A stretch of DNA of 32,000 nucleotides, from positions 1 to 32,000 of the forward strand of contig NJBF01000029.1 of the NCBI GenBank assembly GCA_003144275.1, given 5' to 3'. Below are positions 2,914 to 9,608 of the stretch, one piece after another (the stretch's first letter is position 1; each line of letters begins with the position of its first letter). The position numbers were made by a program, and so were the translations under genes. The stretch comes from Candidatus Heimdallarchaeota archaeon B3_Heim (GTDB taxonomy: Archaea; Asgardarchaeota; Heimdallarchaeia; Hodarchaeales; Hodarchaeaceae). Below the pieces are notes generated by a model. That model was not told the DNA's origin and made no database searches. It saw nothing but the letters and a program-made list of their open reading frames with translations.

Positions 2914-3196
2914 AGTAGAAGGATCCTCCTATTTAGAGTGTTAAGTAAGAAAGATTTTCTGGATTTCGCTAAATGCATTTTTGAAAAGCTGGTATTATGA
3001 TTATTTAGATAAAACATCGTATTAACACCATTACAGGTGCAAATTCATCTTCTGACTTGATTGATGTTGCAATAAGCAAATTTCCTAAAATTTAAAATAT
3101 AATTCAAGTGTATTCTAGTTTAGCAGTATTTCTAACTATAATAAGCCTCGTATTCAATAAAAGAAGAAAATAGAAGAGCTCATAATAACTTGGGAA

Positions 3197-3601
3197 TTAC
3201 GCTTCTTTCCAGTCCCAGATCCCCACTTTTATCCAACGGCAGTAGGCCCAGATCCATGTTTGAATCATAATTGCTGCATCATATGCAGTAAACGTGAAAT
3301 GCCAGTCTTTCTGTGGACGCAGATAACAAATTTCGGTATGGCCATACTCATCCCGTCCATAAACATGGTGTGCCCGACTGGATATTTTCGGTACAACAAT
3401 CCATGCACGTGGTGGAGCGTTAGGGTAATTGTGCGGAAATTCGATCAATACGGTGAATGTACCGTGAGCATATTGTCCAGTAGTGGAATATTTTACTTGA
3501 ACAGCAATGTTACCATTATTTAAGTAGTAAAAATCTTTTCGCGTTAACCCTGGAAATACTCCTTTCAATTCATGCAATTCGTTCTCGACAGTACGATTCA
3601 T
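3197..3601 (-). CDS. E2/UBC-fold protein (prokaryotic E2-like), paralogue 1
   Basis: FTVLIEFPHNYPNAPP matches the UBC F-x-I-x-FP-x-x-YP-x-x-PP signature. HHVY...ICYL places a Cys at the catalytic position, followed by the conserved W (KDW). Confidence 0.8.
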   Translation of the reverse strand: MNRTVENELHELKGVFPGLTRKDFYYLNNGNIAVQVKYSTTGQYAHGTFTVLIEFPHNYPNAPPRAWIVVPKISSRAHHVYGRDEYGHTEICYLRPQKDWHFTFTAYDAAIMIQTWIWAYCRWIKVGIWDWKEA

Positions 3602-3636
3602 TACCCTACTTCCTTGTTCTACTATACTCAGTAATT

Positions 3637-4071
3637 CTAAAATATATGATCAATTACACCAGCTTCTGGCCAGTCCCATACATTCGTCTTGGTCCATCTA
3701 CAATACGTTCTAAGCCAAATTTCTACCAAAAGAGCTGTTTCATAAGAACTAAAATTGAGACGCCAGTCTTTCTTTGGGCGGAGATAACAGATACTCGCAT
3801 GACCATCCTCATCCCATCCATAAACATGGGGGGTATTTTTCAGAATTTTCGGTTTTTGAACCCATACTTTGGGGGAGCCAACTGGATAATTATAGGGAAA
3901 TTCAATCAGGATATCAAAATGACCACAGGCATATTTTCCCGTAGTAATAAAGCTTAATTGAACACATTTATTTTTATTTTTAAGTTGAAGAAAATCTTTT
4001 CTTTGTAAATCAGGGAATATTTTCTTTAATTTTTCTAATTCCCTATCGACTAAATTTCCTCTTAATGACAT
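3637..4071 (-). CDS. E2/UBC-fold protein (prokaryotic E2-like), paralogue 2
   Basis: FDILIEFPYNYPVGSP, PHVY...ICYLRPKKDW. A hand ungapped alignment to paralogue 1 gives 68/134 identities (~51%). Confidence 0.8.
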   Translation of the reverse strand: MSLRGNLVDRELEKLKKIFPDLQRKDFLQLKNKNKCVQLSFITTGKYACGHFDILIEFPYNYPVGSPKVWVQKPKILKNTPHVYGWDEDGHASICYLRPKKDWRLNFSSYETALLVEIWLRTYCRWTKTNVWDWPEAGVIDHIF

Positions 4072-4116
4072 GAATTTTACACTTCAGACGTTAGTTGTTT
4101 TGAGGATTGATCCAAT

Positions 4117-5334
4117 TTACACTTCTTCAGTTTTCTTCTCTAAGTTTGGTCCGTGAAATGGACATCCTTTATCTTTCTCTAAATCTTCATAGTAAACAAG
4201 CTCAAGTCCTTCAAAATTAATTATCTCAGTATTCGGTTTCATTATATTTCTGTTGTACCAGAGATAGAAATTAAATGGAAAGTGGTACAACCTATGTTCA
4301 TGTCCTTCTAAGAGAGTTGCTAAGCAAAACTTTGAGAGAAGAATTGTCAAATTATCAATATCTAAACCCAATCCTGGTTGGGCAAGTTGCTCCTGCATAG
4401 ACCGATCGTAAACTATTTTCTTTTCCAATTCATTGGTTGTGGGAATGCTACCTTTTGTTCCTCCATCCGTTAAAGGATATGCAAGGGAGTCAGCATATAC
4501 ACAATGATAACATAAATCATCTTTACGCGGATCCACTTTAAACAACAATCCCCCTTTCACACCATCAAAGGTTCCTGCATAAATAACTGGGAACTTCAAG
4601 TCATTGGTGTGGATGAAATCATTTATAGCAAAATTAACATCATGTTCTCCAGAAACAGCTATCAGGAGATCAATATCAGTAAATAAATCCAAGAAATAAA
4701 CAGCATCAGCTTTTGTTTGTAAAACAAATTTCTTTTCTACCGTTGTTATTTCGGTTCCTGGTATTCTTGCATGAATATAGTCTTTAACTGCCCTTGTTTT
4801 ATATCTCCCAAGGTGTCCAAGATCTGAAATATGCCGAATAATATTGTGGACTTCAAGATAATCGTTATCAATAAAGATAAATTTTTTAATTCCTGTTTTA
4901 GCAAGATACAAAGCCAAAAGAGACCCACCTGATCCCATACCAATAATAGCCACTTTTTTTTCTCTTAGTATCTTTAATGGAGTTTCTTCTTGATCAATAC
5001 GTACAAATAATCGATTAAGATCAATCATTTCTATAGCAAAATCTTGGACAACAGTAATAATTTCTTCTTTTTCAAAAATTTCTATTTTAGCAATCTTAAG
5101 GGTTTTTGAATCAAGTATCAAGTTAATAAAAGGGAACTTAAGTGAGAAATTAGGATTTGTGTTTTCTAGCGAAATATATCCAATTTGTTTAACAGTATCA
5201 GAGGTAGATGATATTTCGACAAGGTGAAACACTGTAAAATCGTCAAATATTCTTCCATACAAAGGAAAAGGATCTTCCTGAAAGTTTAATTCATTTAGTT
5301 GAGCCTTAAATTCAGGATACATGAGAAACTTCAT
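4117..5334 (-). CDS. E1-like ThiF/MoeB-family adenylyltransferase with ~110-aa N-terminal extension
   Basis: KVAIIGMGSGGS (nucleotide-binding), IDNDYLEVHNIIRH, GRYKT, Zn ligands CYHC (4501-4512) and CPFH (4153-4164). ATG at 5334, five bases after the JAB stop, is preferred over the track start at 5367. Confidence 0.9.
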   Translation of the reverse strand: MKFLMYPEFKAQLNELNFQEDPFPLYGRIFDDFTVFHLVEISSTSDTVKQIGYISLENTNPNFSLKFPFINLILDSKTLKIAKIEIFEKEEIITVVQDFAIEMIDLNRLFVRIDQEETPLKILREKKVAIIGMGSGGSLLALYLAKTGIKKFIFIDNDYLEVHNIIRHISDLGHLGRYKTRAVKDYIHARIPGTEITTVEKKFVLQTKADAVYFLDLFTDIDLLIAVSGEHDVNFAINDFIHTNDLKFPVIYAGTFDGVKGGLLFKVDPRKDDLCYHCVYADSLAYPLTDGGTKGSIPTTNELEKKIVYDRSMQEQLAQPGLGLDIDNLTILLSKFCLATLLEGHEHRLYHFPFNFYLWYNRNIMKPNTEIINFEGLELVYYEDLEKDKGCPFHGPNLEKKTEEV

Positions 5335-5339
5335 TTTTA

Positions 5340-6290
5340 TCACTTTTTGTCCTGCAAAATTTGCCAAAGAGGTTGCTCCAGAAGAGAGGGGATATCATCT
5401 TCAATATCAGTTTTTAGTAGAAGCAAAAATGGATTTATTAATTCCTTGTCATTTAAAGTCTCTGCTGGGTGAGTTTTAAATGTTATATTTTTTGACATAT
5501 CCTCTGAAGAAAAATCACAAAAGATTTTACCATCAGGGAATTCTGGGGGAAAAGATATTAATATCAATAGATTTACTAATTCTAGTTGGTCTAAGAGTTT
5601 AATTGTAAATTGATATGGGAATGATAAGACTTTTTCATCTGGTGTTTGACCTGTTAACTCTTCGATCTCATCCGTTGAAGTTAAATGATCAAAAATATTC
5701 ACAAGCTCATGTTTAACCTGTGTTAAAATATCACTTGGTACTCCTTTTTCTTCCTTTAGAGGTGTAGACATTTCTGTTCCTTCAATGGTGAAAGTCAAAT
5801 TACTTTGTGGAACACGACGAGTACGGAACGAATGGTTTTCAGTAAAACTTTCATCTCCTCGGAAGTAGACTTCAATAATTGGTTCGAACTCCACCTCTGA
5901 ATTGAAATTAATAATAAATGTCAAAATTACGTCAAGATGAGAATTTTTTCTGAAAAAATCCTCTATTTGTCTATGATCTCCGTGACTGGGACCACCGTAC
6001 CCAGGGTGCTTATGCCAATTTCCTAAATACTGTTGTTTCTCTTGCGATAAGACATTTTTTGCATATTCAGGATCTATTTCAAAATAAGCAGCTTTTCTGA
6101 CACAGTTATCGTCAGGAGGGATATGAGTCCTCACAATTTTTATAGTTAGTCGTGCTTCTTCCTCAATGACCTTCCCGAACAACATTCCACCAGTTTCTAT
6201 TTCTGGCCATAGGAAACCCTCTTTTACCATCTCATCGTATGTATCCTGAGTAATGTAGATAAATATGGACTCCGCTTGATAAGAGTACAC
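5340..6290 (-). CDS. JAB/MPN+ (JAMM) metallopeptidase with a C-terminal UBC/RWD-like domain
   Basis: ETGGMLFG (catalytic Glu) and GNWHKHPGYGGPSHGD (HxH...SxxD). GTG at 6290 follows GGGGAT; the track start is TTG 6317. The C-terminal LILISFPPEFP resembles the E2 ILIEFPYNYP. Confidence 0.85.
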   Translation of the reverse strand: MYSYQAESIFIYITQDTYDEMVKEGFLWPEIETGGMLFGKVIEEEARLTIKIVRTHIPPDDNCVRKAAYFEIDPEYAKNVLSQEKQQYLGNWHKHPGYGGPSHGDHRQIEDFFRKNSHLDVILTFIINFNSEVEFEPIIEVYFRGDESFTENHSFRTRRVPQSNLTFTIEGTEMSTPLKEEKGVPSDILTQVKHELVNIFDHLTSTDEIEELTGQTPDEKVLSFPYQFTIKLLDQLELVNLLILISFPPEFPDGKIFCDFSSEDMSKNITFKTHPAETLNDKELINPFLLLLKTDIEDDIPSLLEQPLWQILQDKK

Positions 6291-6341
6291 TGATATAATC
6301 CCCAAACTCTGGATCAAAAACTAAAAAAAGAGATATTTTAC

Positions 6342-6443
6342 CTAATAATGTTTCGATATTGGTACTGTATCTTTATTCTTTTCGGCATCTTCTGTTGCTT
6401 TCTCTTTTGACTCTGTGTCTACTCTTTTAACTGGTCGAGGCAT
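6342..6443 (-). CDS. 33-aa charged peptide MPRPVKRVDTESKEKATEDAEKNKDTVPISKHY, first gene of the JAB-E1-E2-E2 operon
   Basis: GGAG lies 9 nt upstream of the ATG, with an AT-rich TATA-like region further upstream. Same strand as, and immediately upstream of, the JAB gene. Confidence 0.55.
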   Translation of the reverse strand: MPRPVKRVDTESKEKATEDAEKNKDTVPISKHY

Positions 6444-6444
6444 T

Positions 6445-6505
6445 GTATTTTGCTCCATTAGTATGTAATTAAATACAGATTTAGTATATTTATTAATCTT
6501 TACTT
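6445..6505 (-). promoter_or_regulatory. Putative archaeal promoter and RBS for the peptide-JAB-E1-E2-E2 operon
   Basis: Minus strand reads gtaaagattaataaatata...taatggagcaaaatacaATG: purine-rich BRE-like element, TATA-like box, then GGAG. Confidence 0.4.
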
Positions 6506-6604: not shown

Positions 6605-6994
6605 TTAACTTGCATATTTGGAAGGACATTTTGTACTAATCATCGAAGCCTTGAACTGCCAGATATTCGAAATTGAAAGAAGTTTTCCTTCTACAACTAC
6701 TGTCTTGTCAACTTGAAATCCTGCTGGTCTTACTATATTGTTAGCAATTACTTGAATGAATAAACTGCCATTATTTTCCACCTGAGGATCAATAATTGTA
6801 AAATGAGTAGCGTTCATCTCCGTCACATTACCCACTATTTGTATTTTACGATCAATATAGGATTCTGGTTCAGGATGATCCATTAATTCTTGTACACTAA
6901 ATATTGGCACAGAGGAGCCTGTCAACAATATTAACAATGCTCCTGCACACACTAAAACAACAATGCCTGCTGCAATATTCTTGTTATTAACCAT
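6605..6994 (-). CDS. ccmE: Cytochrome c maturation heme chaperone CcmE, CxxxY type
   Basis: N-terminal TM, OB-fold-like core (IQIVGNV...VVVEGKL), C-terminal KCPSKY. ATG 6994 follows GGAGA; the track start is 7012. Confidence 0.92.
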   Translation of the reverse strand: MVNNKNIAAGIVVLVCAGALLILLTGSSVPIFSVQELMDHPEPESYIDRKIQIVGNVTEMNATHFTIIDPQVENNGSLFIQVIANNIVRPAGFQVDKTVVVEGKLLSISNIWQFKASMISTKCPSKYAS

Positions 6995-6998
6995 TTCT

Positions 6999-9608
6999 TC
7001 AATCTCCATCATTTATCTTTTCATCTAATTGAGAATCTATTTCCTGCTCTTTTTCTTTATCAGAGTCTTTCTTAGAATAAAGGTTTTTAAATATGACATA
7101 CCTAGCTATTACCAGCGGTACAATTGCAAAATGGAGAAAAAGACAACCAACCCAGAGAATATTAATGTATGATATTAGCTTGATTTGAAGAGTAGAAGCT
7201 GCGAATATACCTGATACATTGTCTTCATACACGGCAATTGTAACGATATAGATATCGAGAAGAATATCACTGATAAGAGTGACCGATTGATCTGGTCTAT
7301 TAGCTCGATCAAACGCTAGACGGCTTAATCCATAACCAACGATTCGATTACCAGATTTAATCAAAAATACGGTATCGTATCTGACAGCATCGTGTCCAGA
7401 TTCAGGATAGGTTCGATCTATATCTGTTATTTCAATTTTTAAGGAACTACCTGGAATTGGATATTCTCCACCCTGTCTAACCTCTTGAATTTCAGTTGTA
7501 ATTGTCATATTTGCACTGGTTATTGCTCCGAGGAGAATAAGTAATATTGATAGATGTAACATAGTTTGAGATGTTTTACGAAGTAAATGCTTCTCCTCGG
7601 TCATAGTGACATTGACGAATTCATATATTAGTCCGAATACTCCAAGAAGTAATAACGGTAACACTAAATTTGCTTTGTCACTCGAAGTCCAGAAATTAGT
7701 AAGGAAGGAGATTATTGGATTTCCACTGCCAAGAAAAGAAGGAAGGGACTCATTTCGATAAAAAATACCCCCTATCATAAATACAATTCCAACAATTCCT
7801 CCTCCAATGAGTAATTGGGTCTTACGTCGAACTGTAAATCGGGGGAAGAATGTACAGAAAAATTGAGCCAATAGCATTATGCCTCCAAATAATGTTAGTA
7901 TCGTGTTGTAAAAATATATATCTATTGTAATGTCATGTACAAATCCGTCTGGTCGGTATACTTCAATGCTATAGAGCATTCGCGAGATTGCATTTTCGAA
8001 ATACACTACGATTGGGTCTGTGAGAAGATGCCCAAAAATGTCATATATAACTGGAAAAAGCACGCTGAGAATTACTATATACATTCCAATTAATAATGCA
8101 ACGTTACGTCTATATTTTGTAACAGTAGGCTCAGAACTACTCAGAAAATTATTTATTCGTTTAATCTGATCCTTCTCAAAACCGATGTAATAGAGGAGAT
8201 ATAAGAAAAATCCCAGATAAATGATTAGAGAAAAGGTCGTTGGATAAAGTATTGTTTTACTAAACGCGATACCAAACAAAAGCAGAAGATCGTACAAAAA
8301 CGAGTACACTTCAAATAGTATTGGAGCTGTAAGAAGCAAACCAATGGCGTCATAAATGACTGGAAAAAGTAACCCCAGGATCATTGTATAGGTTCCAAGA
8401 AACAATGCTATGTATGATAATTTGAGAGCAGTACTTCGAATTTTTGAGGTTGTGAAGTCAGATCTTGTTAGAAAGTATGAAATTCTCCTGAATTGACCTT
8501 TTTTAAACCCAAGGTAATGTAGGAGGAACAAGAAAATCATCATACAAATGAAGAGAAATAGCATTCTTTCATCTGGTATTACTCTTAGAATCAATTTCAT
8601 GAGAAAGCTATCTGCTGGTATGAATGTCGATAATACTTGATCTAAGGAACCTCCGGGAGAAAATGTGTGGACACTTGAAATTATTGCGCTCCGTGTTAAG
8701 TAAGTGGCAGCTAAGGCACTTAAATAAGACATACTTATAATATAATTTCCAAGGTATTCGTTTTTCCTATGATAATTTGATTTTCCATGATAGAATATAG
8801 TAAGAAATAGCCAAGGCATTAAGGAAGCTGTTTCAACAGGATCCCAAGCCCAGAAACCACCCCAACCAAGTGTGATATAGGCCCAATACGCACCGATAAT
8901 GATTCCTGAACTCATGAATAGCCAAGCAAGCGAAACCAAGAATTCAAAGAATGAGTCCAGTTTTTCTTTACCTTCAAAGTCGGGTACTTTACCATCTTCT
9001 AGAATTGATATCCGAATGAACCCAATAACCATAGGTATCAGACATAAGATATATCCGAGTAGAATCATTGGTGGATGAATGATGTTCCATATGTTCATCA
9101 AGGTAGGATTTAATCCTGTTCCATCAGCTATTGTAAACGTGTTAATTTTGAATGGATCACTCATAATTGTTAGGGTGATGAAGATAGCTATTTGAGCAGC
9201 CAAGAGGACAAATGAGCGCCAAAAAAAAGTCTCATGGGCATATTCTCGAAACATTGTTCTGAATATGAGATAGAGAACTACGCCAAAGAAAGTCCAGAAG
9301 AAATATGAGCCAGCCTGGCCTGACCAAATAGCAGATAGCCTTAGGAAGAAGTCCATACTATTGCTAACATGCGCACTCACATATACAAAACTGTAGTCTG
9401 CTGTTATTACTGAGTAACCGAAATAGAAAAATGAGACAAGTACTGCTGAGCAACCAATAATTAAACCTAATTCAGAATAAGTTTCCCAATCTTCATATTT
9501 CTCTCCGAAAATCACGAATATCGCGTCAATGATAAAGGCAATCAAGCTTACTAGAAGCAAGAGTAAACCTAAATCGATTCCAAGTGTTCCTATACCGATG
9601 AAAATCAT
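6999..9608 (-). CDS. ccmF: Cytochrome c heme lyase CcmF/NrfE family, unusually long (869 aa)
   Basis: WSGQAGS, GLNPTL...IHPP, WGGFWAWDPVETASLMPW (WWD domain), SVHTF, HLSILL. Confidence 0.93.
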   Translation of the reverse strand: MIFIGIGTLGIDLGLLLLLVSLIAFIIDAIFVIFGEKYEDWETYSELGLIIGCSAVLVSFFYFGYSVITADYSFVYVSAHVSNSMDFFLRLSAIWSGQAGSYFFWTFFGVVLYLIFRTMFREYAHETFFWRSFVLLAAQIAIFITLTIMSDPFKINTFTIADGTGLNPTLMNIWNIIHPPMILLGYILCLIPMVIGFIRISILEDGKVPDFEGKEKLDSFFEFLVSLAWLFMSSGIIIGAYWAYITLGWGGFWAWDPVETASLMPWLFLTIFYHGKSNYHRKNEYLGNYIISMSYLSALAATYLTRSAIISSVHTFSPGGSLDQVLSTFIPADSFLMKLILRVIPDERMLFLFICMMIFLFLLHYLGFKKGQFRRISYFLTRSDFTTSKIRSTALKLSYIALFLGTYTMILGLLFPVIYDAIGLLLTAPILFEVYSFLYDLLLLFGIAFSKTILYPTTFSLIIYLGFFLYLLYYIGFEKDQIKRINNFLSSSEPTVTKYRRNVALLIGMYIVILSVLFPVIYDIFGHLLTDPIVVYFENAISRMLYSIEVYRPDGFVHDITIDIYFYNTILTLFGGIMLLAQFFCTFFPRFTVRRKTQLLIGGGIVGIVFMIGGIFYRNESLPSFLGSGNPIISFLTNFWTSSDKANLVLPLLLLGVFGLIYEFVNVTMTEEKHLLRKTSQTMLHLSILLILLGAITSANMTITTEIQEVRQGGEYPIPGSSLKIEITDIDRTYPESGHDAVRYDTVFLIKSGNRIVGYGLSRLAFDRANRPDQSVTLISDILLDIYIVTIAVYEDNVSGIFAASTLQIKLISYINILWVGCLFLHFAIVPLVIARYVIFKNLYSKKDSDKEKEQEIDSQLDEKINDGD
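8010..8528 (-). repeat. Internal tandem duplication within CcmF (aa ~362-430 and ~471-533)
   Basis: LLHYLGFKKGQFRRISYFL...ALFLGTYTMILGLLFPVIYDAIGLLLTAPI versus LLYYIGFEKDQIKRINNFL...ALLIGMYIVILSVLFPVIYDIFGHLLTDPI. Confidence 0.8.

Follow-up and report, generated by a model that had tools for sequence, protein, structure and literature searches.

Gene Content and Signals of the Cassette

The window analysed here is 32,000 nucleotides (nt) of DNA, positions 1–32,000 of the forward strand of contig NJBF01000029.1 in the 3.9 Mb, 94% complete assembly GCA_003144275.1 of Candidatus Heimdallarchaeota archaeon B3_Heim, and it carries on its minus strand, at 3197–6443 (local G+C 35–37%), five closely packed, co-oriented genes in the order peptide-JAB-E1-E2a-E2b. 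These encode a peptide of 33 amino acids (aa), a JAB/JAMM metalloprotease, a ThiF-type E1 (ubiquitin-activating-like) enzyme and two paralogous E2 (ubiquitin-conjugating-like) enzymes, and we refer to them together as the cassette. The cassette is real and conserved, and judged by the comparisons below it probably serves ubiquitin-like conjugation with an unfolded peptide as the modifier. A first-pass annotation of this DNA had described five co-oriented genes bounded by a T-rich tract after the upstream gene ccmE, by a promoter and ribosome-binding site of their own and by a T-rich tract after E2b; the open reading frame (ORF) coordinates agree with that description, and all of these boundary signals are present in the sequence (Table 1).

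Table 1. Features of the cassette in the window (upper nine rows) and positions noted in loci of Chloroflexota-type relatives (lower four rows)
Feature	Position	Strand	Remarks
Archaeal promoter element, BRE/TATA-like, taaagattaataaat	6488..6502	−	About 45 nt 5′ of the peptide ATG; read directly and by cross-locus comparison
GGAG ribosome-binding site	6453..6456	−	9 nt 5′ of the peptide start codon
Peptide gene, 33 aa	6342..6443	−	Starts MPRP, ends TVPISKHY-stop; candidate modifier
Spacer between peptide and JAB	6291..6341	−	T7 and T5 runs read from the sequence; possible partial terminator
JAB/JAMM metalloprotease, 325 aa	5340..6317 (longest ORF)	−	MPN+ domain and C-terminal alpha/beta domain; probable start GTG 6290
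ThiF-type E1, 416 aa	4117..5367 (longest ORF)	−	Probable start ATG 5334
E2a, UBC-fold conjugating enzyme, 144 aa	3637..4071	−	
E2b, 134 aa	3197..3601	−	Paralogue of E2a
T-rich tract 3′ of E2b	about 3157..3177	−	Read from the sequence; likely operon terminator
Chloroflexota-type relative, L061	2912–3100		
Chloroflexota-type relative, L059	2563–2742		
Chloroflexota-type relative, L058	3257–3511		
Chloroflexota-type relative, L030	4212–4397		

The promoter element is near-identical in 14 Hodarchaeales-type loci and the DNA around it diverges, and the GGAG site is kept 5′ of the peptide start in 11/11 compared loci at a distance of 7–11 nt. The longest ORFs of JAB and E1 overlap; orthologue alignment indicates that both enzymes probably start later (E1 at residue 12 of its longest ORF), and with these revised starts the apparent overlap disappears. 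The T runs in the spacer between peptide and JAB are not a universal feature, because runs of at least five T are seen in only 8 of 14 related loci; in the window the spacer hints that the peptide transcript may be more abundant than that of the enzymes.

Conservation of the 33 aa Peptide

The peptide is the best-conserved product of the cassette, with 82–94% identity among 11 loci from the window's GTDB genus; the corresponding values across the same loci are 73–93% for E2b, 58–88% for E2a, 54–76% for E1 and 41–67% for JAB. Nucleotide differences among its orthologues are distributed over codon positions 1, 2 and 3 as 129, 49 and 744, a pattern that indicates purifying selection on a translated protein, and stop codons just 5′ of its Met in most of the 11 loci fix the length of the ORF at 33 aa. 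The gene is single copy in the window's genome. Judged by these patterns, the peptide is a genuine, translated part of the cassette under strong constraint, and it accompanies the enzymes in two archaeal phyla (below). No family match to it was found in Pfam, NCBIfam or PADLOC, and in the protein collection it forms 48 clusters, of which any that are named are called only "hypothetical protein". An exhaustive profile search with the peptide reached eight representative clusters at E ≤ 0.001, the Chloroflexota peptides described below being outside its reach, and the family is small at the sequence level. A search for the peptide fused into longer proteins gave no credible match, which is weak evidence.

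The constraint lies at the two ends. M1, P2 and R3 are invariant at the start, T26, P28, K31 and H32 followed by Tyr or Phe are invariant at the end, and the middle varies in length; the archaeal consensus begins MPR[PD] and carries T-[VI]-P-x-x-K-H-[YF] towards its end. Two lysines, K13 and K31, are invariant, and the window peptide has neither Gly nor Cys. The K-H-[Y/F] motif is followed either directly by the stop codon (most Hodarchaeales) or by a short tail that differs between close relatives; the tails seen are S, F, GN, RN, KLIHHV, LLL, FLL, FNDS, FNDC, FNDF, SNDF, YNGT, YSDT, YDS, YTLQ, YLLQ and YLLNDL/P. By analogy, such an invariant motif with a disposable extension resembles the precursors of ubiquitin-like proteins (Ubls) before a protease exposes their reactive C-terminus. 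Other groups of loci have other ends: two (L087 and L085) keep the MPRP start and end in D-H-Y or E-H-Y, Chloroflexota relatives have a 59–62 aa ORF 5′ of E2 that ends K-P-x-R-W-[FY] with or without a tail, and one Verrucomicrobia locus has a 67 aa ORF ending R-R-H-Y just 5′ of E1. The terminal motif (KH[YF], DHY/EHY, RW[FY] or RRHY) thus changes with the enzyme clade.

Several public sequencing runs from marine sediments and cold seeps contain short contigs that match the peptide gene alone (window 6342–6444) and then diverge, which fits the unusually high nucleotide conservation of this gene among relatives. Two runs, labelled metatranscriptomic and flagged as probably DNA, have short contigs that cover the peptide gene and, in part, JAB and E1; these are not evidence of expression, and no RNA data set is listed as containing this stretch.

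The E1, JAB and E2 Enzymes

The proposal of the first-pass annotation that the larger genes encode a JAMM protease, a ThiF/E1 enzyme and two Cys-bearing E2 folds is upheld by Pfam and PADLOC matches and by invariant active-site residues. The E1 matches Pfam ThiF (1.1e-23) and PADLOC Cap2 "E1-E2" models (down to 4e-28), and it has an N-terminal beta-rich domain of about 110 aa (residues ~12–114), an addition to the earlier description, followed by an adenylation domain (~125–410). The Gly-rich nucleotide motif (G143, G145, G147 and G148) is invariant in the alignment, as are R123, D167, D169, N175, R178 and K190. The only invariant Cys residues are C286-x-x-C289 and C402, probably the ligands of a zinc site such as ThiF/MoeB-type enzymes usually have, and there is no conserved Cys in the crossover loop.

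The predicted model of the E1 has a mean predicted local distance difference test score (pLDDT) of 77, with the crossover loop (294–329) disordered, and in Foldseek comparisons Cap2 (7to3_A, 2.5e-16) and full-length Atg7 rank first. Among the 50 VIA-align matches listed, only Cap2 covers both E1 domains (model residues 10–395 on Cap2 168–600, Z 21.1, 310 residues aligned), and its large root mean square deviation (rmsd) of 10.3 reflects a different orientation of the domains. Because of this two-domain alignment the E1 looks like Cap2 minus the E2 domain, and its N-terminal domain, which matches no Pfam family, looks like the counterpart of the Cap2 linker/Atg7 N-terminal domain. Of solved relatives, MccB (4e-15) and PaaA (2.7e-15) match the adenylation domain, and ThiF, MoeB, UBA5 and Cap2 score similarly. 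A predicted complex of an E1 dimer with the peptide scored 0.08 against a mark of 0.32, a result that speaks neither for nor against binding.

JAB matches Prok-JAB (7.8e-6) and PADLOC JAB models of the cyclic-oligonucleotide-based anti-phage signalling system (CBASS; down to 1.7e-12), and its JAMM residues E41, H102, H104, S111 and D114 are invariant in 17 sequences. Its AF2 model (pLDDT 80) has an MPN+ domain at residues ~13–185 that aligns with Cap3 (9ild_A, Z 14.5, rmsd 2.5, 137 residues), a match tied with Rpn11, Pyrococcus JAMM1, the Caldiarchaeum Rpn11 homologue and others. The second domain (~190–314, about 130 aa), also new relative to the earlier description, consists of a helix, four strands and two helices; it has no Pfam match and only weak structural ones (Z 6.5–7). 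A degenerate UBC/RWD fold, the third UBC fold of the cassette, is conceivable for it; its match to Ubc9 (Z 6.5) is tied with those to type III secretion chaperones and Mediator chains, and its alignment to an E2 profile with hhalign is weak (probability 21%, E 0.001, N-terminal half only).

E2a and E2b are ~52% identical and match UQ_con, Prok-E2_E and RWD, all below the Pfam cut-offs (E2a to UQ_con at 5.9e-4); their PADLOC matches are to CBASS E2 models, at 1.6e-9 (E2a) and 3.1e-9. The catalytic pair, H82 and C95 in E2a numbering, is invariant across 19 E2s from archaeal and Chloroflexota relatives, and both paralogues keep it. The preservation of the JAMM motif, the E2 His and Cys and the E1 nucleotide motif is consistent with activity of all of the enzymes. 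E2a, and not E2b, has a C-terminal extension (window 3637–3663) that ends D-H-[IL]-F in 4/5 aligned orthologues and D-H-I-F in the window; this tail resembles the acidic-or-basic-His-aromatic end of the peptides, which could reflect self-recognition, auto-inhibition or coincidence.

Distribution and Neighbourhood

The gene order peptide-JAB-E1-E2a-E2b is fully conserved in the 11 loci of the window's GTDB genus. The peptide is the first gene in 11/11 genome loci of the window's clade that include upstream sequence, and both E2 paralogues are present in every complete Hodarchaeales-type locus. The closest E1 homologues carry the names of Hodarchaeales, Hodarchaeota or Heimdallarchaeota metagenome-assembled genomes; of the other 21 genomes in the genus 13 have the E1, which is virtually absent from the rest of the class. 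A second archaeal clade lies in the Nitrososphaeraceae (ammonia-oxidising Thaumarchaeota), where 9 of 121 sampled genomes carry the cassette and the E1 is 34–42% identical to that of the window. There the operon consists of a small ORF, JAB (~330 aa), E1 (~416 aa) and a single E2, and the small ORF is a 48–54 aa homologue of the window peptide. This homologue is present in 11/11 Nitrososphaeraceae loci with a complete region upstream of JAB, as well as in L045, where a contig end cuts it, and the peptide is also found in every archaeal-type metagenome locus that includes the region upstream of JAB. The patchy spread in both clades points to an accessory module rather than a core pathway.

The cassette is self-contained, in that the five genes keep their order while the flanks differ, and no conserved partner outside the five genes was found across the compared loci. 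In the window the cassette is preceded by ccmE (6605–7012, Pfam CcmE), after which the T-rich tract lies. Beyond the three closest genomes the ccmE and MoxR neighbours (below) are replaced by genes for tetratricopeptide repeat proteins, short-chain dehydrogenases, DinB, winged helix-turn-helix regulators, flavin reductase and NosD-like proteins, all apparently genes of ordinary metabolism or regulation. No sign of a defence island was seen either there or in the window, where the cassette lies between cytochrome c maturation genes on one side and a MoxR/DUF4129 pair on the other.

Upstream, ccmE overlaps an 869 aa membrane ORF (6999–9608, minus strand), a putative ccmF by position and size alone, and with these two the Asgard genome would have genes for cytochrome c maturation. 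Downstream, at 1058–2913 on the minus strand, are the genes of a MoxR-type AAA+ ATPase (AAA_3, AAA_lid_2) and of a membrane protein whose domain resembles DUF4129; outside the three closest genomes (L018–L020) this pair does not stand beside the cassette.

More distant relatives are rearranged. The Chloroflexota-type relatives, among them Oscillochloris trichoides DG6 (L061), have the order peptide-E2-JAB-E1 with a JAB of ~470 aa in L059, L061, L120 and L122, and no JAB was called in L058. L030 and L031 have another gene order, with a 585 aa JAB upstream, and the cluster goes on with a Band_7 protein, a 961 aa protein and an Endonuclease_NS_2/YezG-like pair, neighbours that suggest a conflict system. 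In a marine metagenome locus (L032, 1835–4691) a JAB-E1 fusion of 573 aa is preceded by an E2 and two 71 aa ORFs, one of which ends W-G-G-A and is possibly a different, Gly-type small modifier. On a 29 kb metagenome contig (L087, 1348–9013) the cassette is enlarged: the peptide with the D-H-Y end, JAB and E1 stand amid three small E2-like genes and the gene for a 413 aa protein, one region of which is E2-like.

Ubiquitin-Family Genes at the Locus and Elsewhere

The annotation had also stated that the locus lacks a Ubl, a CD-NTase and a RING protein, and profile scans together with the conserved block in at least 11 loci bear this out. Neither a GG-ending ORF nor a conserved ORF of beta-grasp size is present in or beside the cassette of the window, as ORF and orthologue comparison confirmed. 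Homologous operons were examined for a Ubl ending in Gly-Gly, and among more than 60 loci none carries one and no Ubl of any kind is linked to the cassette; the peptide is found there consistently instead.

The claim of "no ubiquitin-like gene" therefore holds for the locus and fails for the genome, where ubiquitin-family proteins, a further addition to the earlier description, are encoded on two further contigs, in both cases next to an E1 of their own. One contig (L001, 1477–2965) encodes an 80 aa ubiquitin-family protein in which three residues come after an internal GG, beside a 349 aa E1 and a 266 aa ORF; the other (L002, 3–1824) encodes, beside another E1, two proteins in which a long acidic N-terminus is combined with a Ubl tail that ends AG or AGWN. 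A search of five cassette-bearing Nitrososphaeraceae genomes for PF00240 gave no match (ThiS/MoaD-type proteins were outside this search).

A Short Peptide as Candidate Modifier

The most economical reading, for which we judge the chances about even, is that the cassette is a Cap2/Cap3-related Ubl conjugation module whose modifier is the 33 aa, probably unfolded peptide and not a beta-grasp protein. Each step of the cycle that follows is what we infer from the genes. The peptide would be made from its own strong promoter, and where a tail follows K-H-[Y/F] it would be trimmed by JAB so that the aromatic C-terminus is exposed. The homodimeric E1 would then bind the extended C-terminal tail and adenylate the carboxylate of the terminal Tyr. 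Because the E1 lacks a crossover-loop Cys, the adenylate would be attacked directly by the catalytic Cys of an E2, for which the N-terminal domain of the E1, being like the Atg7-NTD/Cap2 linker, would be the docking site. The resulting E2~peptide thioester would be resolved on a target amine, probably a lysine. JAB would also undo the linkage, and the invariant N-terminus (Pro-Arg-Pro after removal of Met) would be displayed on targets as a recognition element.

Precedents for several of these steps are given in the Cap2 preprint (10.1101/2022.03.31.486616): the disordered C-terminus of the CD-NTase sits in the E1 active site of Cap2 as an AMP conjugate, the E1 Cys of Cap2 is dispensable in vitro since the E2 Cys can substitute for it, the Cap2 linker/Atg7 N-terminal domain recruits E2s, and Cap3 cuts exactly after the last residue of the substrate. 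These precedents make activation of an unfolded tail and direct attack of an E2 on the adenylate mechanistically reasonable.

A number of points weigh against a peptide modifier. We know of no Ubl-activating E1 that acts on an aromatic C-terminal residue; Ubls end in Gly, and of the peptide-activating relatives MccB acts on Asn and PaaA on Glu. The E1 lacks the usual catalytic Cys, so that a full E1-to-E2 relay is not guaranteed, and the invariant K13 and K31 would equally suit a role of the peptide as acceptor. In the Nitrososphaeraceae the tail region overlaps the JAB start codon, and part of the tail variability there could come from the overlapping frame and not from lack of constraint. 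The window's genome holds ubiquitin-family genes at other loci, and a Ubl of the ThiS/MoaD type may be the modifier in trans in any of the genomes.

The last two candidates raise the explanation that the peptide is an accessory (a regulator, pseudo-substrate inhibitor or adaptor) and that the modifier is a beta-grasp protein supplied in trans, either an Asgard ubiquitin or Ubl or a small archaeal modifier protein (SAMP) of the ThiS/MoaD type. The 80 aa protein and the two Ubl-tailed proteins of this genome are available for such a role, and SAMP-type Ubls are common in archaea; each of the genomic Ubl genes, however, adjoins an E1 of its own, the five searched Nitrososphaeraceae genomes (0/5) gave no ubiquitin-family match, and linkage of a Ubl to the cassette is never seen in the more than 60 loci. 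A mere regulator would also be unlikely to keep an invariant extreme C-terminus in front of disposable tails, and we regard this explanation as unlikely. Slightly less probable still, in our estimate, is that the peptide is a precursor like those of ribosomally synthesised and post-translationally modified peptides (RiPPs), whose C-terminus is adenylated to give a modified peptide or peptidyl-nucleotide and a small-molecule product, as with MccB/MccA and PaaA/PaaP. In its favour, MccB and PaaA are close in sequence to the adenylation domain, as close as almost any solved protein (scores above), and a short peptide gene in first position with an E1-like enzyme bearing an extra N-terminal domain resembles MccA/MccB. 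Two E2s with an invariant catalytic Cys and a JAMM isopeptidase, however, have no place in known RiPP routes, the conserved block is without an exporter, an immunity gene or a tailoring enzyme, and among the matches listed only Cap2, through its linker, spans the E1 N-terminal domain and no RiPP recognition element protein does (the domain alone was not searched).

It is also conceivable that the peptide is the acceptor, with some other donor (the E2a D-H-[IL]-F tail, for example) put on its lysines or its N-terminal proline, or that the cassette acts on itself as a switch. Such an arrangement would account for the invariance of K13 and K31 and for the resemblance of the E2a tail (4/5 sequences) to the peptide terminus, but it leaves the variable tails after K-H-[Y/F] and the clade-wise change of the terminal motif unexplained, and the Nitrososphaeraceae E2s lack a D-H-x-F tail; we consider it improbable. 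The modifier interpretation takes in these tails and terminal motifs. The description of a self-contained, peptide-based system for activation, transfer and removal is partly supported by the comparisons: the cassette is self-contained and the peptide is real and conserved, and attachment of the peptide to proteins and a possible role in defence are the inferred part.

The generalisation that Hodarchaeales and ammonia-oxidising Thaumarchaeota, with analogues in Chloroflexota and other bacteria, possess an unrecognised post-translational modification, in which an unfolded, aromatic-ended peptide of 33–60 aa is processed by a JAMM protease and attached by E1 and E2 with no need of a ubiquitin fold, is put forward more tentatively, as somewhat short of an even chance. 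We found no account of E1/E2/JAB operons with a peptide modifier in the literature, coverage of which was incomplete so that a prior description is possible. By analogy, the cassette could serve for antiviral tagging, as Bil does, or could supply a tag for degradation or regulation in the manner of Pup; an accessory or conflict function would agree with its patchy distribution.

Comparison with Known Systems

In function the cassette would come closest to the conjugation module (Cap2 and Cap3) of type II CBASS, but it is without the features that define CBASS. The best PADLOC matches of E1, E2 and JAB are all CBASS models, the E1 fold is nearest to Cap2 including the linker/Atg7-NTD-like domain, and JAB, which matches Cap3, has an intact JAMM site. 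In CBASS the element of the substrate that is recognised is likewise a disordered C-terminal tail and not a beta-grasp surface. The cassette differs in that it has no CD-NTase (only a chance-level match to PDLC00808, E 0.039), no cyclic-nucleotide-activated effector and no conserved neighbour beyond its five genes. Cap2 is an E2-E1 fusion, whereas E1 and two E2s are separate genes here, and the E1 is entirely without a crossover-loop Cys. The candidate substrate is a free, Tyr/Phe-ended peptide of 33–52 aa, where CBASS has a Gly-ended protein, and the hosts are archaea.

The bacterial Bil (BilABCD) and Bub systems are, like the cassette, stand-alone operons of four or five genes that encode an E1, an E2 and a peptidase of the JAB type but no effector of their own, and for Bil conjugation itself is described as the output. 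Bil, however, has a beta-grasp Ubl with a C-terminal Gly and an E1 with a CYS domain that bears the catalytic Cys; the cassette has a 33 aa peptide without Gly or Cys and an E1 without that Cys. Type I Bub is described as fusing Ubl to E2 and JAB to E1 and adding a DUF6527 protease, and an E2-E1 fusion is the alternative layout among Bub systems. The genes here are all separate, no DUF6527 match was found at the locus, and BubCD matches the E1 weakly (7.4e-5). The 6A-MBL anti-phage system, which consists of an E2-E1-JAB triple fusion ("cap2_3") and a metallo-beta-lactamase (MBL) protein, is represented by NF058523, the best NCBIfam match for E1 (8.2e-17) and JAB (1.7e-9) and the sole match for E2a (2.3e-3); these matches score no higher than 61 bits, far short of the cut-off of 320, and the genes of the cassette are unfused and without an MBL gene.

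MccB/MccA (microcin C7) and PaaA/PaaP share with the cassette a ThiF-fold enzyme, with a similar adenylation domain, whose substrate in the cassette would likewise be a short ribosomal peptide that does not end in Gly. No E2 or JAB takes part in those pathways, whose end product is a secreted antibiotic, and in the sole listed alignment that covers it the E1 N-terminal domain of the cassette overlies the Cap2 linker, not a peptide clamp. The Pup tag is disordered, and its C-terminus undergoes processing ahead of ligation; the ligase in the Pup/PafA/Dop system has the glutamine-synthetase fold and is not an E1/E2 pair. Asgard lineages reportedly run E1/E2/JAMM cascades, but the Asgard/Caldiarchaeum ubiquitin-E1-E2-RING-Rpn11 operon has a beta-grasp ubiquitin and a RING E3, and no PF00240 or RING match is present at the locus described here.

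With E1/E2/JAB conjugation systems in general the cassette shares an E1 of the adenylating type, an E2 with the catalytic Cys and an isopeptidase with an intact site. All E1/E2 conjugation systems for which we found a description have a beta-grasp protein as modifier, with the exception of CBASS, where a folded enzyme contributes its tail. If the modifier here is indeed a free, unfolded, Tyr-ended peptide, the beta-grasp fold would not be required for E1/E2 tagging, and archaea, including the abundant soil ammonia oxidisers, would possess a new kind of tag. Some analyses place the Asgard order in which the cassette occurs closest to eukaryotes, and such a system would bear on the evolution of non-canonical E1s of the Atg7/Cap2 kind.

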